From a virus: a DNA stretch of 43,062 bases. The notes below the pieces were generated by a model. The model searched no databases, was not told the origin of the DNA, and saw only the letters and a list, made by a program, of their open reading frames with translations. Location: UHGV virus genome UHGV-1377764. One strand, 5' to 3'. Every line of letters begins with the position of its first letter. The first letter of the stretch is position 1. The translations under genes and the position numbers were made by a program. Positions 9,593-42,651 of this stretch are shown piece by piece.

Positions 9593-9627
9593 ACTTGGTT
9601 TACTTAACTTACACAGTATCCCTCATA

Positions 9628-9640
9628 TATGATATAATAG
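9628..9640 (+). promoter_or_regulatory. extended -10 promoter motif TATGATATAATAG for rightward operon
   Basis: TGnTATAAT at 9630-9638; weak -35 TTACAC; same 13-mer recurs upstream of many + strand genes. Confidence 0.5.
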
Positions 9641-10446: not shown

Positions 10447-10647
10447 TAGAAATGAGGGTAATTAATATGATTAAACATCACATCACTAAATATAGAACAG
10501 ACGGAGAACAAAGAGTAGTATCATGGTTACAACTAAACCTGTTCAATCGTCAATACTGTTTTTCAATTAAAGACCTAACTATGAATCAAAAGACTACTAA
10601 ATAATGGTAGTCTTTTCTTCTATATAATAGAAGGAAGGAGTAACGCA

Positions 10648-11040
10648 ATGAGACAGCGCAAGTGTGCAGTGGCTTCATGTCGCAGCTATGTAACGCTACC
10701 TGATCACTACTGTGACGCACATCAAGGTCACAACAACAGTCAATATAATAAGCATGTTAGATATAATGATGACAACAAGAAGTATAGTGAGTTCTATCAT
10801 AGTACTCAATGGAGGAATGCACGTAAAGCTAAGCTAATGGAGCAACCACTATGTGAGGTATGCTTAGCACAAGGCAAGTATACCAATGCTGACATGGTTC
10901 ACCATAAGATAGAATTAAGAAGTCCAAACGGATGGAAATATAGACTTGATTTAAATAACTTAGAATCAATATGTTACAAGTGTCACAACAAGGAAGAGCA
11001 TAGCTACAGTTGGAAAAATAGAGGTAGGGAACAGCGCTAA
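10648..11040 (+). CDS. HNH endonuclease (packaging-associated, adjacent to terminase module)
   Basis: 130 aa; HNH core HHKIELRSPNGWKYRLDLNNLESICYKCHNKEEH; position immediately upstream of terS region as in HNH-dependent cos phages. Confidence 0.8.
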   Translation: MRQRKCAVASCRSYVTLPDHYCDAHQGHNNSQYNKHVRYNDDNKKYSEFYHSTQWRNARKAKLMEQPLCEVCLAQGKYTNADMVHHKIELRSPNGWKYRLDLNNLESICYKCHNKEEHSYSWKNRGREQR

Positions 11041-11092
11041 ATCAACAACCACGCAGTCAAAATTATTTTTAGGGAGACCCAAAATGTTTTTA

Positions 11093-11302
11093 CCCGCCCG
11101 CCTTTTTATAACGAATTAATCGCTGCCCCCTCTTCTTCGCATGAAATTCTAAAAATGAACTTTCAAAAACGCCCTTTTCCCCTCGTAAACGTGATTTAAA
11201 CCTGGTTTCTTGTGTTGAAAATCAAGGATTCATACTATATATAGTATGTTATTTCGCTTATACGATTTTTCCCCCTATAAACATGATTGAATCCTGGTTT
11301 CT
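11093..11302. repeat. HNH-terS intergenic region: GC-rich decamer CCCGCCCGCC, second GC island, and two ~35-nt direct repeats (ttttcccctcgtaaacgtgatttaaacctggtttct / tttttccccctataaacatgattgaatcctggtttct); candidate cos / terminase recognition region
   Basis: Read directly; repeats at 11176-11210 and 11265-11302. Confidence 0.45.
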
Positions 11303-11389
11303 CTACACAGGGTTCTTTTTATATGATATAATAGAGCTATATAAGGGAGTTAGCCGTTAACTCAAAAATAAAATAAGGGAGGTTATACA

Positions 11390-11572
11390 ATGCCTGCACC
11401 AAAACCAGTGTACGTAAAAGATTTATCAACTGGGCAGACACGCAAATTCAAATCACAATTCGCAGCAGATGATTTCTATAATAAGAAGCGTGGCTACTTT
11501 AAGGATATTAAAACAAAATTAGGCGGACGCAATCGTCACTTTGAAATTACAGAAGCCCCAAAGGAGGGTTAA
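11390..11572 (+). CDS. hypothetical basic protein
   Basis: 60 aa, RBS AAGGGAGG. Confidence 0.4.
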   Translation: MPAPKPVYVKDLSTGQTRKFKSQFAADDFYNKKRGYFKDIKTKLGGRNRHFEITEAPKEG

Positions 11573-11574
11573 AC

Positions 11575-11868
11575 ATGATTTTATATTATAAGGAAGAGGG
11601 ATACACTTCACTACCTATTGAACAAGTGGAATATAAGCGTATTGAAAATAAAACATATGCTCCTGAGTTTGTTATTGATGGTAAAGAATATGGGGTAGTC
11701 AACCTTATGGAGAGCTATAAAACCTTTGGAGAAGAAGGACACCACCATATGTTAGTAGCTGATGTTGTGTCAGGAGATACAAATTATTTTGCACAATATG
11801 AATTAACTATTGATTATGATGCTAGAGTAATTGTAATTACATTCATCAAAGAAATTAAGGAGGATTAA
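11575..11868 (+). CDS. hypothetical protein
   Basis: 97 aa, RBS AAGGAGGG. Confidence 0.45.
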   Translation: MILYYKEEGYTSLPIEQVEYKRIENKTYAPEFVIDGKEYGVVNLMESYKTFGEEGHHHMLVADVVSGDTNYFAQYELTIDYDARVIVITFIKEIKED

Positions 11869-11870
11869 TT

Positions 11871-12086
11871 ATGGATTTAAGTTATGAAGCAATATCAATG
11901 CGCGTAGATAATATGCTAGATGTAAACACAGGTGGAGAACTCATTAGTAGAGTTACTTATGGCTATCTATGTGGATATTTAAAAGCGTTACTTGAAGCAG
12001 AGATATTAAATGAATATGAATTTTCAAAATTAAAAGAAAAAGTGAATAAACATAAATACACCAACCCGCACTTAAAGGAGGAGTGA
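11871..12086 (+). CDS. hypothetical protein
   Basis: 71 aa, RBS AAGGAGGA. Confidence 0.45.
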   Translation: MDLSYEAISMRVDNMLDVNTGGELISRVTYGYLCGYLKALLEAEILNEYEFSKLKEKVNKHKYTNPHLKEE

Positions 12087-12090
12087 TAAC

Positions 12091-12555
12091 ATGGCAAGAC
12101 CACGAAAATTATTAAACGCTCAGAGTGGTAACTTGACCACTCAGCAACGAGAAGAGCGTGAGAAGGAGGAAGAAGTACTTTATAACTACGAAAAGTTAGA
12201 CTTTAGTTTTTATCCACCAGGTTTATTACCACAAGCATTCAACGAGTGGGATCGCATAGGAGCGTATGTAGGTGATTTGCCTATTTCTGAGTTAGATGTG
12301 AATACAGTCATTAGATATTGCAACTATAATTATCTATACGCTGAAGCAGTAGAGAAGGTGGCTCAAATGGGCGCTATTGACCCTGAGACAGGCAAAGCGA
12401 ACCCTTGGGTTAATGCCATGAACTCCTATTCAAAAGAGCTAAAAACAGCAACCAACGACTTAGGGCTGACAATCAATTCAAGAATGAAAATTATTCTTCC
12501 AGCTGAGAAAGAGAAAGAAGTGATTGATCCATTTGCGAAAATGTTTGAGGGATAA
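12091..12555 (+). CDS. terS: terminase small subunit, P27 family
   Basis: 154 aa; typical P27-family TerS features; RBS AAGGAGGAG; 1 kb downstream of HNH. Confidence 0.7.
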   Translation: MARPRKLLNAQSGNLTTQQREEREKEEEVLYNYEKLDFSFYPPGLLPQAFNEWDRIGAYVGDLPISELDVNTVIRYCNYNYLYAEAVEKVAQMGAIDPETGKANPWVNAMNSYSKELKTATNDLGLTINSRMKIILPAEKEKEVIDPFAKMFEG

Positions 12556-12626
12556 CCTACACAAAACTAATATTGTGTGCTATACTATGTATAGCAAATG
12601 AGTGGTAATCATTAGATACACAATTA

Positions 12627-12654
12627 TCACAAAAGTCGGATTTTGTGATATAAT
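12627..12654 (+). promoter_or_regulatory. promoter with overlapping 8-bp inverted repeat TCACAAAA-N6-TTTTGTGA and extended -10 TGaTATAAT
   Basis: Read directly; would drive transcription into the GC-rich element. Confidence 0.45.
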
Positions 12655-12660
12655 AATTAA

Positions 12661-12990
12661 TAGGTGGCATCTAATACACCTCTCGTGACACCGCAAGCGA
12701 GAGTATGCTAAAACGCGCTCTAATGAGTAGCCATGTGAGAGTTGGAGACCTTAGCTCACAGCGGTAGATAGTGGTTCACCACACTCCACTATAAAAAGGG
12801 TTGCTGTTGGAAACTGAACAGTCGTGGACGGCGCACGTAAACGACCGCTCGCTACAGTGTCTAGCGAATGCGTGATAGTATGACCCTCTTTGACGACAAG
12901 CACGACAAAGCAGTTAGCCACATAACAGAGGGCGTGGAAACCTGCAGATACTACAATCTCCCTAGTCTAGCTAACTAGGGAGTCTTTTTT
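12661..12990 (+). ncRNA. candidate structured non-coding RNA between terS and terL (GC-rich island, no ORF, own promoter and terminator)
   Basis: ~330 nt with many local helices (CTCTCG..CGAGAG, GTGAG..CTCAC, CGTG..CACG) in a 34% GC genome; longest ORF 35 aa without SD; ends in perfect terminator. Confidence 0.4.
12958..12990 (+). terminator. rho-independent terminator (9-bp stem CTCCCTAGT/ACTAGGGAG + T6)
   Basis: Read directly; immediately followed by extended -10 TGTTATAATAG at 12992-13002 and terL RBS. Confidence 0.75.
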
Positions 12991-13022
12991 ATGTTATAAT
13001 AGTATAAAAGGAGGATACATAT

Positions 13023-14795
13023 ATGTTTGATCCAGTACAAGATTATATAGACCTAATTGAAAAAGGATATGTTGAAGGTAAAAAATACATTGTTGAAGAT
13101 GGTAAATATAAGACAATTAAAGTTGACATTCGTGTAGGTAAGAAAATACAAAAAGCGATTGAACGCCATCAAAGAGAAGTAGAATTATCTAAACAGCCAG
13201 ATTATCCATATATTTATAGACCTGATGAAGCATTACCAGTGATTAAATTTATGGAAATGCTTCCTGATCCAAAAAGTCGTAAACCAATGAAGTTAGCAAC
13301 CTTCCAAAAATTCATCATTGGTTTACTATATGGTTGGCGCAAAAAGCGAGATAATACTAGACGTTTTAGAAAGGCATATATATCCCTAGCACGTAAGAAT
13401 GGTAAGTCGTTAATTGTGGCAGGTATTGCACTATATGAGTTTTTGTTTGGTAAAAATCCAGCAGCAAGCCGTCAAGTAGTCGCGGCAGCTAACACAAAAG
13501 AGCAGGCAGGAATCGTTTTCAGAATGCTTAAATCTCAATTAATGGCACTACGCAGCGTATCAAAAGAAGTGAAGAAAAGAACCACTGTGCGTAGATATGA
13601 TATTGAAGCGAGTGATGAATCAACAGTCAAGCCATTATCCAGTGACGCAGACACACTAGATGGCTTAGATGTTTTGTGTGGTATTCTAGATGAGTATGGT
13701 GAAGCTAAAGATACAAGTATTATTGAAGTATTAGAATCATCACAAGCCCAACAAGTGGAAGGTCTAATTTTAATGATATCTACAGCTACAAAAAACTTAA
13801 ATGGTCCTATGTTCACAATAGATTACCAATTTGTTGATAAGCTACTCAATGAAGAAGTGAAAGCTGATGCCTATCTAGCACTATGTTGGGAGATGGATAA
13901 TCTATCAGAAGTAGATGATGAAGCAAACTGGATAAAAGCCAATCCATTATTAGAAATACCAGAGGCTTATGAGTCAATGATGGAGCATAAACGCAACTCA
14001 CTTGATGAATATAAAGGTAAAATGGATTTATCAGGATGGCTTACAAAAGAAGAAAATTTTTGGGTACAATCATCTAAAGATAGTTTTGTAACCAAAGAAG
14101 AGTGGGATTCCGTCAAAGCATCCAATCGTTATGATATTAAGGGTAGAAAAGTATATATTGGGATTGACTTAGCCAGAACATCAGACATGACAGCCGTTTC
14201 ATGGATCATCCCAATAGAAGAAGAACACAAACTATTACTAGATACACATGGTTTTGTATCTTCAGTTGGTGGCATAGACCATAAACAATCAATTGATAAA
14301 ATACCATATAGACAGTATGAGTCAATGAACCTCATTCATATCTCACAACGTGAGGATGGGTTAATAGACACAGAAGAAATGTGTGATTGGATACGTGATT
14401 TTATAGATTATAATGACTTACAACTGGTAGGTATCTACTATGATCCATTTATGATGGATAAAGCTTTAATTAATCTAAGTAAGACCTATCCCAAAAAACT
14501 AATTGAAGTACCACAGAAAATTAACTATTTATCTTCACCAACCAGAGCCCTGCGTGAGTTAATTCGTAGAGGTGAAGTAATACACACAAATAACCCTTTA
14601 TTGAATCGTGCAGCATACAATGCAATGATTAAAGAGTACAATGACAGCGTTGCAATTGATAAGCAAATCAACAGGAATAAAATTGACTCACTTGACGCTA
14701 TAATAAATGCCATGAGTGACGCTCAATATCACGATTATGATGCACCAACATTGCAAGATTTACTAGATAGCGGTGAGTTTGGTTTTGGATACTAA
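13023..14795 (+). CDS. terL: terminase large subunit
   Basis: 590 aa; Terminase_1-like N-terminal ATPase and C-terminal nuclease regions; RBS AAAGGAGGA. Confidence 0.85.
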   Translation: MFDPVQDYIDLIEKGYVEGKKYIVEDGKYKTIKVDIRVGKKIQKAIERHQREVELSKQPDYPYIYRPDEALPVIKFMEMLPDPKSRKPMKLATFQKFIIGLLYGWRKKRDNTRRFRKAYISLARKNGKSLIVAGIALYEFLFGKNPAASRQVVAAANTKEQAGIVFRMLKSQLMALRSVSKEVKKRTTVRRYDIEASDESTVKPLSSDADTLDGLDVLCGILDEYGEAKDTSIIEVLESSQAQQVEGLILMISTATKNLNGPMFTIDYQFVDKLLNEEVKADAYLALCWEMDNLSEVDDEANWIKANPLLEIPEAYESMMEHKRNSLDEYKGKMDLSGWLTKEENFWVQSSKDSFVTKEEWDSVKASNRYDIKGRKVYIGIDLARTSDMTAVSWIIPIEEEHKLLLDTHGFVSSVGGIDHKQSIDKIPYRQYESMNLIHISQREDGLIDTEEMCDWIRDFIDYNDLQLVGIYYDPFMMDKALINLSKTYPKKLIEVPQKINYLSSPTRALRELIRRGEVIHTNNPLLNRAAYNAMIKEYNDSVAIDKQINRNKIDSLDAIINAMSDAQYHDYDAPTLQDLLDSGEFGFGY

Positions 14796-19497: not shown

Positions 19498-19568
19498 TCA
19501 AACACAAAGCGTTGATAATATGCTATAATTAACCTAGTAAGAAAATAAAAATAAAAGGAGTTTTTAGT

Positions 19569-20147: not shown

Positions 20148-20175
20148 GTCTTAATTGGCTAGGTTTTTTATTTAC
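20148..20175 (+). terminator. terminator hairpin after major tail gene (CCTAGTCTTAATTGGCTAGG + T6)
   Basis: Read directly. Confidence 0.55.
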
Positions 20176-20239
20176 ACACTTGAGGGATTATATGATATAA
20201 TGAAGTAGTAAAGATAAATAAAACATTGGAGGAACTAAA

Positions 20240-39004: not shown

Positions 39005-39067
39005 TTTAATTCCTCCAATTAAGTTGTTTTATTCTCGCTTACAAAATCTATTATATCATATATTCCC

Positions 39068-39286
39068 TTACTTGTGTAAGTTATTTACACATGATTCAAG
39101 TATTTCGTCAACGGTTGCCTGATTAAGTTTAATTAGACCCAATAATACAATTATACTGCTAGTGTTATACTCTTCTAGGTCACTATGATTCAGGCCTGTA
39201 TATCTAACAATATTTTCCTCAAACTCCACTGCTTTTGAATCATACTCTTCTACCAATTTAATCAGTTCCTCAGTTGTTAAATTCAT
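39068..39286 (-). CDS. hypothetical protein
   Basis: 72 aa ORF. Confidence 0.4.
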   Translation of the reverse strand: MNLTTEELIKLVEEYDSKAVEFEENIVRYTGLNHSDLEEYNTSSIIVLLGLIKLNQATVDEILESCVNNLHK

Positions 39287-42533: not shown

Positions 42534-42651
42534 TCTATCAAATCCTCTCTTTGTTTATATATTTATAATATCATATAGTATCTTACTTGTCAACACAAAA
42601 CTTTTAGTTTATGCTATAATAAATTATAGGGATTCCTCCTCCCTCCTCTCG

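Follow-up and report, generated by a model that had tools for sequence, protein, structure and literature searches.

The non-coding region at positions 11041-11389 of UHGV virus genome UHGV-1377764 very probably holds the cohesive-end packaging site (cos) of this phage, with the cut at 11121-11129. Throughout, the window means the whole stretch of DNA that was analyzed (43,062 nucleotides). By its sequence, the window is an Enterococcus faecium siphophage of the IME-EFm1/IME-EFm5 group: the region 10600-13100 matches Enterococcus phages only (megablast), with 84-96% identity over the spacer. The explanation that best accounts for the whole, and one that we regard as likely, is a cos site used in packaging by an HNH endonuclease, a P27-type small terminase subunit (TerS), and the large subunit (TerL), and composed of a core cos plus a module containing two direct repeats, R1 and R2. 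The cos itself is a homologue of the published sites of phages IME-EFm1 and IME-EF4, and it confirms what is known for this phage group. For its split into a shared core and a virulent-lineage module (two repeats and a small putative DNA-binding protein) we found no description in the searchable literature, and we consider it a modest addition.

The position of the cut comes from the ends of relatives. Zhang et al. (2015, BMC Genomics 16:414; PMC4445525) described the ends of IME-EFm1 as 9-nt 3′ cohesive ends. Two terminal reads, CTCTTCTTCGCACGAAATTC and ATTAATTCGTTATAAAAAGG, are over-represented more than 240-fold in that phage, and they are separated by a 9-nt tail GGGTCAGCG (reverse complement CGCTGACCC; PMC4445525). 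These reads align to the window from 11130 onward and from 11120 backward, and the nine bases in between, CGCTGCCCC (11121-11129, + strand), differ from CGCTGACCC by one base. We infer nicks at 11129/11130 on the top strand and at 11120/11121 on the bottom strand, with the mature genome beginning at 11130. The overhang would be a 9-nt 3′ end, a polarity that we take from the same work, where it was shown experimentally for IME-EF4 and deduced from the reads for IME-EFm1 (PMC4445525). The present site and the IME-EFm1/IME-EF4 cos are homologous DNA with the same overhang length and the same neighboring genes, and the left flank ...AAT and the right flank CTCTTCTTCG are identical to those of IME-EFm1; the difference is that the window comes from another isolate or contig, and its ends are placed here by homology.

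Other records end at the same bases. The GenBank records of IME-EFm1, Aramis, and dArtagnan all open with CTCTTCTTCG, which aligns to 11130; those of Aramis and dArtagnan close with ...AATTAATCGCTGCCCC, aligning to 11129, and that of IME-EFm1 closes with ...AATTAAT, aligning to 11120. For Aramis and dArtagnan, the termini had been predicted with PhageTerm (PMC11210271). A comparison with related HNH-cos phages had been suggested as a check in the initial annotation, which was made from the letters of the window alone, and the ends of these three phages do fall at 11120/11130. The IME-EF4-type overhang CGGTGATGA, seen in Ef6.1, occupies the identical alignment columns.

Metagenomic contigs add to these ends. 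Sixteen IMG/VR loci were found via ORF60, the small gene that follows the spacer; two of their contigs (L034 and L038) begin exactly at the base matching 11130, two more begin 4 and 12 nt inside the cut, and a further two have leftover Nextera adapter there. A scan of IMG/VR for the pattern CTGGTTTCT-N76-90-CTGGTTTCT, taken from the repeats, gave mostly matches by chance (127, versus 23 true family members), and its matches were used only after a filter on the full motif. Among the 23 true members, 10 contigs end at most 100 nt upstream of R1, 3 of them exactly at the nick. As a separate observation on public data, the first 10-50 bases of contigs L028 and L036 (IMG/VR, sample 3300045988) include Nextera transposase adapter (...AGATGTGTATAAGAGACAG) fused to phage sequence just inside the cos end; these remnants are untrimmed adapters at genuine DNA ends.

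The initial annotation had proposed a cos in a spacer running from the HNH gene to terS, with a GC-rich island as the cohesive end. The placement after the HNH gene is borne out by the termini of relatives and by the record and contig ends that align to 11120-11130; direct adjacency to terS is not, since three open reading frames (ORFs) intervene and terS is ~960 bp away. Of the two islands then pointed out, the second, CGCTGCCCCCTCTTCTTCGC (11121-11140), contains the cohesive end CGCTGCCCC, and the first, the decamer CCCGCCCGCC, does not serve as one.

The 3′ half of the overhang drifts among relatives (CCCC, ACCC, ATGA, ATTC), and therefore recognition must rest largely on the flanks. The two flanks differ: the left is AT-rich, the right rich in pyrimidines. 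A division of labor in which TerL cuts one strand and the HNH protein the other has been suggested for HK97 (PMC11331095), and the asymmetry of the flanks would fit the same division in the present phage.

The genes around the cut are those expected for this kind of packaging. The packaging-type HNH endonuclease gene (130 aa, 10648-11040, + strand; Pfam HNH PF01844, E = 5e-9; phrog_144, E = 2e-32) is directly upstream of cos, a position that is the same in all relatives, and the nearest solved structure to its protein by sequence is 5h0m, deposited as ‘HNH endonuclease’ (E = 7.5e-13). The 349 bp that follow (11041-11389) have no ORF of 40 aa or more, in keeping with the non-coding stretch described at the outset. 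Then come ORF60 (60 aa, 11390-11572, + strand; phrog_10805, E = 3e-33), ORF97 (11575-11868), ORF71 (11871-12086), the gene terS for a P27-family small terminase subunit (12091-12555, + strand; Pfam Terminase_4, E = 5e-14; phrog_83), and the gene terL for the large subunit (13023-14795, + strand; Pfam TerL_ATPase and TerL_nuclease, E = 1e-40 to 1e-43). An HNH gene on one side of cos, with a Terminase_4 terS and a TerL gene on the other, is the expected layout of HNH-dependent, HK97-like packaging. The order common to the relatives is HNH, spacer, small ORF, variable slot, terS, terL.

Which parts of the spacer matter? We measured conservation in an alignment of virulent relatives (24, all non-identical) that covers both the E. 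faecium-type phages and the Efquatrovirus phages of E. faecalis. Sequence is kept best at 11083-11107; in TAATCG, where the bottom strand is nicked; in the A-tract-rich segment 11141-11174; in the 5′ TTTTC and the TGGTTTCT core of R1; in CCTGGTTTCT of R2; in TGnTATAAT; and in the ribosome-binding site.

The leftmost of these, a T-run/C-run block AAAATGTTTTTACCCGCCCGCCTTTTT (11083-11107, + strand), has a mean majority fraction of 0.91 and 9 invariant columns, and from its position it could be a left-side cos element, placed like cosQ. It contains the decamer CCCGCCCGCC (11093-11102), which is, as claimed, the most GC-rich in the region. No other 10-mer of the 43-kb window is all G/C, but chance would give about 1.0 such site, and its composition is therefore uninformative by itself. 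Only the C-run character of the decamer is conserved. A C-run is found at a similar distance upstream of AATCG also in four temperate-type relatives (L160-L163), and a G-run takes its place in L159, L164, and the virulent phage LG62. As a cohesive end the decamer is ruled out: the ends align downstream of it, it lies 19-28 bp upstream of the bottom-strand nick, and relatives carry CCCCCCTACC or CCCGCCTACC instead, or in LG62 the G-run. Nor is the C-run a terminator of the HNH gene, since it forms no stable hairpin (minimum free energy -6.8 kcal/mol, z = +0.93); no terminator-like site was found in the spacer.

On the other side of the cut, the right flank CTCTTCTTCG and the A-tract block that starts 12 nt after the nick (together 11130-11174, + strand; the block itself 11141-11174, or +12 to +45) make up a candidate small-terminase site. 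In the block, 14 of the 34 columns are invariant among the 24 virulent phages. The flank and block align without gaps to two virulent Efquatrovirus phages and to five temperate-type relatives, with TTC, A, and TT invariant. The temperate relatives come from a protein search with TerS. Its P27-family homologues are 54-59% identical to it and are encoded partly in Enterococcus genome assemblies (one of them, likely a prophage, on a 760-kb contig) and partly on metagenomic contigs. An HNH gene lies upstream of terS in 5 of the 6 temperate-type loci, in 4 of them only 90-170 bp away. All six spacers have AAT|CG(A/G)(T/A)G..., and in most of them a flank rich in pyrimidines (CTCTTCT, for example) comes next; all six also have an A-tract block AAAATTCCCTTTAGAAAATTTGTAAAA that aligns gap-free to 11141-11170. 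Thus AATCG, one G within the overhang, and the A-tract block keep their register, gap-free, across virulent and temperate relatives. The TGGTTTCT repeats and the ORF60 gene are absent from all six temperate-type loci examined. Because the temperate-type spacers do without repeats and ORF60, the core cos is about 90 bp long, roughly 11083-11174. One of these loci has a peculiarity of its own: at 993-1096 of L159 (an Enterococcus sp. AZ102 genome contig, likely a prophage), inside a small ORF after the HNH gene, there are eight in-register copies of a 9-bp tandem repeat, AAAGAAGTA.

The closest well-studied parallel to the core cos is HK97, with its HNH protein gp74, TerS gp1, and TerL gp2. HK97 has a 10-nt 3′ overhang, and gp74 stimulates the cut; its TerS site is at +15 to +29 downstream of the cut, and an adjacent A-tract is read (PMC11331095). 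The overhang is here 9 nt instead of 10, the HNH gene in both cases adjoins cos in the circular or concatemeric form, and the HK97 TerS site by its A-tract has as its counterpart the conserved A-tract block at +12 to +45. This block is thus present at the distance of the HK97 TerS site, and also at that of the AT-rich I2 segment of lambda (PMC4856287), and we consider it by analogy the likeliest small-terminase anchor, a proposal to which we give an even chance. A paper on the Skunavirus HNH protein offers no cos anatomy suited to such a comparison. The two phages differ in that terS is 50 bp from the end in HK97 and ~960 bp from it here, behind repeats, promoter, and three ORFs.

The core is followed by the repeats. 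R1, TTTTCCCCTCGTAAACGTGATTTAAACCTGGTTTCT (11175-11210, + strand), starts at +46 from the nick and directly after the A-tract block, and R2, TTTTCCCCCTATAAACATGATTGAATCCTGGTTTCT (11267-11302, + strand), starts at +138. The two direct repeats of ~35 nt, ~92 bp apart, that had been noticed in the initial annotation hold up: they are 36 nt long, identical at 30 of 36 positions (83%), and 92 bp apart from start to start. When the 349-bp region is shuffled 2000 times with its dinucleotides preserved, the best 36-nt match averages 20.9 identities and never exceeds 26. Even at a tolerance of 3 mismatches, the 36-nt consensus has no other copy in the 43-kb window. The repeat core alone does recur (2442, 1574, and others); these copies fall inside or next to long ORFs, the remainder of the motif is missing, and they are therefore treated as chance.

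Both repeats are conserved, with a geometry that can be followed in the two virulent lineages. The R1 core TGGTTTCT starts 73 bp after the top-strand nick (74 in two loci) wherever both can be located, and the base before it is a C, replaced by A in a few phages. From core to core, R1 and R2 are 89-93 bp apart. The -10 element of the promoter that follows lies 32 bp from R2 in one lineage and 27 bp from it in the second. No block of the spacer is better conserved than CCTGGTTTCT in R2 (8 of 10 columns invariant, majority fraction 0.98), and within R2 CTGGTTTCT is invariant in the 24 aligned phages. Each relative sampled has either the whole set of R1/R2, promoter, and ORF60 or none of it, and the set is present only in virulent lineages; therefore these parts look like one lineage-specific module.

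Two further features belong to this part of the spacer. A possible stem, or third and inverted repeat copy (11211-11232 with 11288-11309, 82% complementary; DNA fold z = -1.9), is unsupported: its arms show no co-variation in IME-EFm5 and are unrecognizable in the E. faecalis phage group. Midway between R1 and R2, at 11231-11248, the sequence reads as a perfect 18-bp palindrome, CATACTATATATAGTATG; phages of the E. faecium group keep part of it, those of the E. faecalis (Efquatrovirus) group do not, and it might serve as an operator or as a site of bending.

What protein would read the repeats? R1 and R2 are probably binding sites for ORF60 or for the terminase, with a role in packaging or in promoter control. 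That they act in packaging we hold at somewhat less than an even chance. The roles offered in the initial annotation, R-site-like terminase sites or sites for a late activator, have become less straightforward: the repeats are missing both from temperate relatives with a homologous cut site and P27-type TerS and from the window's six other promoters of the class described below. As for the reader, the best candidate is ORF60, a tentative choice made for its conservation, its predicted fold, and its co-occurrence with the repeats.

ORF60 is a basic protein encoded by the first gene after cos. Its identity to the MSF2 orthologue is 70%, compared to 61% for TerS and 52% for HNH, so that between the two virulent lineages it is more conserved than either packaging protein. 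The AlphaFold2 model of ORF60 is a confident one, with a predicted local distance difference test score (pLDDT) of 85.8 and a beta-beta-alpha-alpha-beta topology. Its best match in the PDB is DNA-bound I-HmuI (1u3e), with a template modeling (TM) score of 0.72 over 54 columns, a root-mean-square deviation of 2.2 Å, and a weak E-value of 0.059 (Foldseek). A profile comparison with the C-terminal domains of neighboring I-HmuI-like endonucleases is also weak (hhalign probability 44%, E = 2e-4, 27 columns). With the I-HmuI-like C-terminal domains encoded beside it in relatives, ORF60 shares P-[IV]-x-[IV]...TG...F; it differs from I-HmuI in that it stands alone, lacks a nuclease domain, and is present with or without a following homing endonuclease gene. 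These fold and profile matches thus make ORF60 a plausible sequence-specific DNA-binding protein. There is no Pfam match for it.

ORF60 is found in metagenomic protein and viral-contig collections and in records of related Enterococcus phages. Among bacteria and archaea, scanned as one genome per species (185,579 species), it has no genuine match; the sole bacterial match, in a gammaproteobacterial metagenome-assembled genome, is an out-of-frame artefact within an 848-aa ORF of the opposite strand. On the basis of the model, a homing endonuclease may be the origin of ORF60, which would then be a DNA-binding domain that stands alone. A more specific version, in which a domesticated, nuclease-free homing-endonuclease domain sits on R1/R2 as a lineage-specific third component of DNA recognition in packaging, or as a switch that links packaging with expression of the terminase operon, strikes us as unlikely. 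If it were true, virulent Enterococcus phages would have added ORF60 to an HK97-like core cos that works without it in temperate relatives.

Next to R2 there is an extended -10 promoter (11304-11332, + strand), and the initial annotation was right to place one after the repeats. It consists of TACACA (11304-11309), a spacer of 17 nt, and TATAAT (11327-11332) with an upstream TG; its score in a consensus scan is 10 of 12. Its elements are ACACA (11305-11309) and TGATATAAT (11324-11332), and TGnTATAAT is kept in both virulent lineages. Sites of the form ACACA-N14-TGNTATAMT occur seven times in the window versus 0.04 expected: 9611-9638, 11305-11332, 12559-12586, 19502-19529, 20174-20201, 39050-39077 (- strand), and 42593-42620. 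By itself, TGNTATAAT occurs 18 times versus 4.8 expected. This ACACA family suggests a distinct phage promoter class with an unusual -35-like element. The upstream site that activator-dependent late promoters would share is not seen here: the repeats are absent from the other six promoters of the class. The repeats therefore do not act as a general activator site, nor does this class of promoter depend on them.

Promoter control is the rival that survives best. R1 and R2 could be operators through which ORF60 or another regulator controls the 11304-11332 promoter, for example by autoregulation with looping over the 92 bp, and the cos would stand as described; we consider this possible, if on the unlikely side. 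R2 ends two bases before ACACA, repeats and promoter and ORF60 co-occur as described above, the promoter serves ORF60 first, a gene whose product is predicted to have a DNA-binding fold, and repeats at just 1 of the 7 promoters of the class are what one expects of a gene-specific operator. Against this, the 5-bp shift in the distance from R2 to the -10 element (32 vs. 27) amounts to half a helical turn between lineages, which is awkward for a fixed operator-promoter geometry, while the distance from nick to R1 stays at 73, and R1 directly abuts the core cos.

Alternatively, R1 and R2 could be lambda-type R sites read by TerS itself, with ORF60 serving an unrelated function. The order in lambda is cosQ-cosN-I2-R3-I1-R2-R1, with an AT-rich I2 segment at bp 18-50 (PMC4856287). 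In the window there is a similar succession of upstream element, nick site, AT-rich A-tract segment, and repeated sites on the side of the terminase genes, and the repeats at +46 and +138 between the nick and these genes agree with the layout of a lambda-type cosB; R3 of lambda is at about bp 50, and its other R sites lie toward Nu1 (PMC4856287). The uniqueness of the repeats in the genome and their strong conservation also speak for sites of this kind. However, the lambda TerS, gpNu1, binds by a winged helix-turn-helix, lambda uses the host IHF and no HNH protein, and there is no sequence similarity between its cos and the present one. Lambda leaves 12-nt 5′ overhangs. For TerS of the window the only Pfam match is Terminase_4 (P27), not a gpNu1 type, and no N-terminal helix-turn-helix domain is evident in its model. 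Moreover, R1/R2 are missing in temperate relatives whose cut site is homologous and whose TerS is 54-59% identical, and therefore the repeats are unnecessary for this type of terminase. Taken together, we find direct reading by TerS improbable. By analogy, the present cos would be of HK97 type (HNH-assisted, with a 3′ overhang), and lambda-like in layout only.

It is very improbable that the repeat is a neutral, functionless leftover of a local duplication: the existence of just two copies would agree with it, but both copies are kept in more than 40 loci (GenBank and metagenomic) of two lineages whose spacers are otherwise 65-70% identical, and the invariance of CTGGTTTCT in R2 has persisted while the sequence between the copies diverged.

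The weakest alternative, that the ends lie elsewhere (for example, in an element at 12.6-13.0 kb) or that packaging is headful and the spacer is only a promoter region, we consider scarcely credible: it could appeal to the early analysis of the IME-EFm1 data, read in 2014 as 265-bp direct terminal repeats (PMC3896407), but that reading was revised by the same laboratory in 2015 (PMC4445525), with terminal reads 9 nt apart, and is contradicted also by independent record ends, with three curated records and several independent metagenomic contigs ending at the same base; and phiNASRA1, an E. faecalis phage whose kinship to the present group was not checked, is reported to have 3′ cohesive ends and HK97-like packaging by PhageTerm (PMC7246028). 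As it happens, the start codon of ORF60 lies almost exactly 265 bp from the nick.

The element at 12.6-13.0 kb had been offered in the initial annotation as the place where termini might map instead, and this has no support. It is a 467-bp GC-rich non-coding element between terS and terL (12556-13022; GC 0.49 vs. 0.35 overall), with promoter-like sites at 12559-12586 and 12626-12654 and a terminator at 12958-12982. Among relatives it behaves as a module: Ef6.1 and Ef6.4 lack it and have only 45-93 bp between terS and terL. Among seven E. faecium-group phages, 7 of its 42 predicted base pairs have compensatory double changes. The element has no Rfam match even at E ≤ 1, as is the case for the region 10500-13100 in general, which has no known RNA family even at that cutoff. 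From its sequence, it looks like an undescribed structured RNA gene, and not like a cos.

If we return to the reading of a core cos plus an R1/R2 module, packaging might proceed as follows. On the concatemer, terminase and HNH proteins would make staggered nicks on either side of CGCTGCCCC, leaving 9-nt 3′ cohesive ends and a mature genome that starts at 11130. The shared core of ~90 bp would comprise the C-run (11093-11102), an invariant AAT|CG at the bottom-strand nick, the pyrimidine-rich right flank, and the A-tract block. The small terminase would anchor on the block at +12 to +45, as in HK97, and position TerL and HNH at the cut site, and packaging would run rightward, toward terS and terL. 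R1 and R2 would be sequence-specific protein sites, bound most likely by ORF60 or else by TerS, and they would lengthen the terminase-anchoring side of cos in the manner of the lambda cosB.

Several points weigh against this reading. The cut site is placed by homology to relatives and not by the virion ends of this phage, and the IME-EFm1 termini are themselves read frequencies, with the wet-lab confirmation made on IME-EF4 (PMC4445525); the same data had once been given the 265-bp interpretation. The likeness of TerS to the HK97 protein is not significant. The AlphaFold2 model of TerS is of moderate quality (pLDDT 71), with helices as its sole regular secondary structure, and when compared to HK97 TerS (6z6e, 8pop) it has target-normalized TM scores of 0.57-0.61 with E > 2; HK97 TerS recurs among the top fold matches, non-significantly. 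By sequence there is no homology to HK97 gp1 (BLASTP E = 6.5; HK97 gp1 lacks a Terminase_4 match), and TerS has no sequence match in the PDB. For ORF60, both the Foldseek and the hhalign evidence for the fold are weak. Its co-occurrence with the repeats may stem from a single evolutionary event, and the temperate relatives that lack R1/R2 weaken the case for a cosB role. The constant 73 bp between nick and R1 may merely follow from the constrained block in between, and an R2 that abuts the promoter fits regulation equally well.

There are practical uses for these results. An exact cos position lets the genome be written in its true linear form. The minimal DNA for a packaging plasmid or satellite would be roughly 11083-11174, possibly extending to 11302, and such a minimal cos is relevant to cosmid-like vectors and to the transduction risk of therapeutic phages against vancomycin-resistant E. 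faecium. The comparison of virulent and temperate phages separates the shared core cos from a lineage-specific add-on (repeats, promoter, and ORF60), and this separation allows a cheap test: has a small homing-endonuclease-like protein been recruited to packaging or to its regulation? The IME-EFm1/IME-EF4 paper invokes cosB and cosQ only generically (PMC4445525), and we found no description of the C-run, the A-tract block, R1/R2, or ORF60 in the searchable literature.

Two observations concern the neighboring genes. A terminator-like hairpin at 10588-10616 is directly followed by TATAAT (10622-10627) and the ribosome-binding site of the HNH gene, and therefore the HNH gene seems to begin its own transcription unit, one that would seem to read through cos in circular or concatemeric DNA. 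Downstream, the slot between ORF60 and terS (11575-12086) is hypervariable. In this phage it holds two ORFs of unassigned function, ORF97 and ORF71; it is empty in IME-EFm1, RG1, and IME-EFm5; and in many relatives (L003, L005, L009, L011-L015, L018) it holds HNH/I-HmuI-like homing endonucleases of 109-217 aa. The slot looks like an insertion hotspot for homing endonucleases that adjoins cos.

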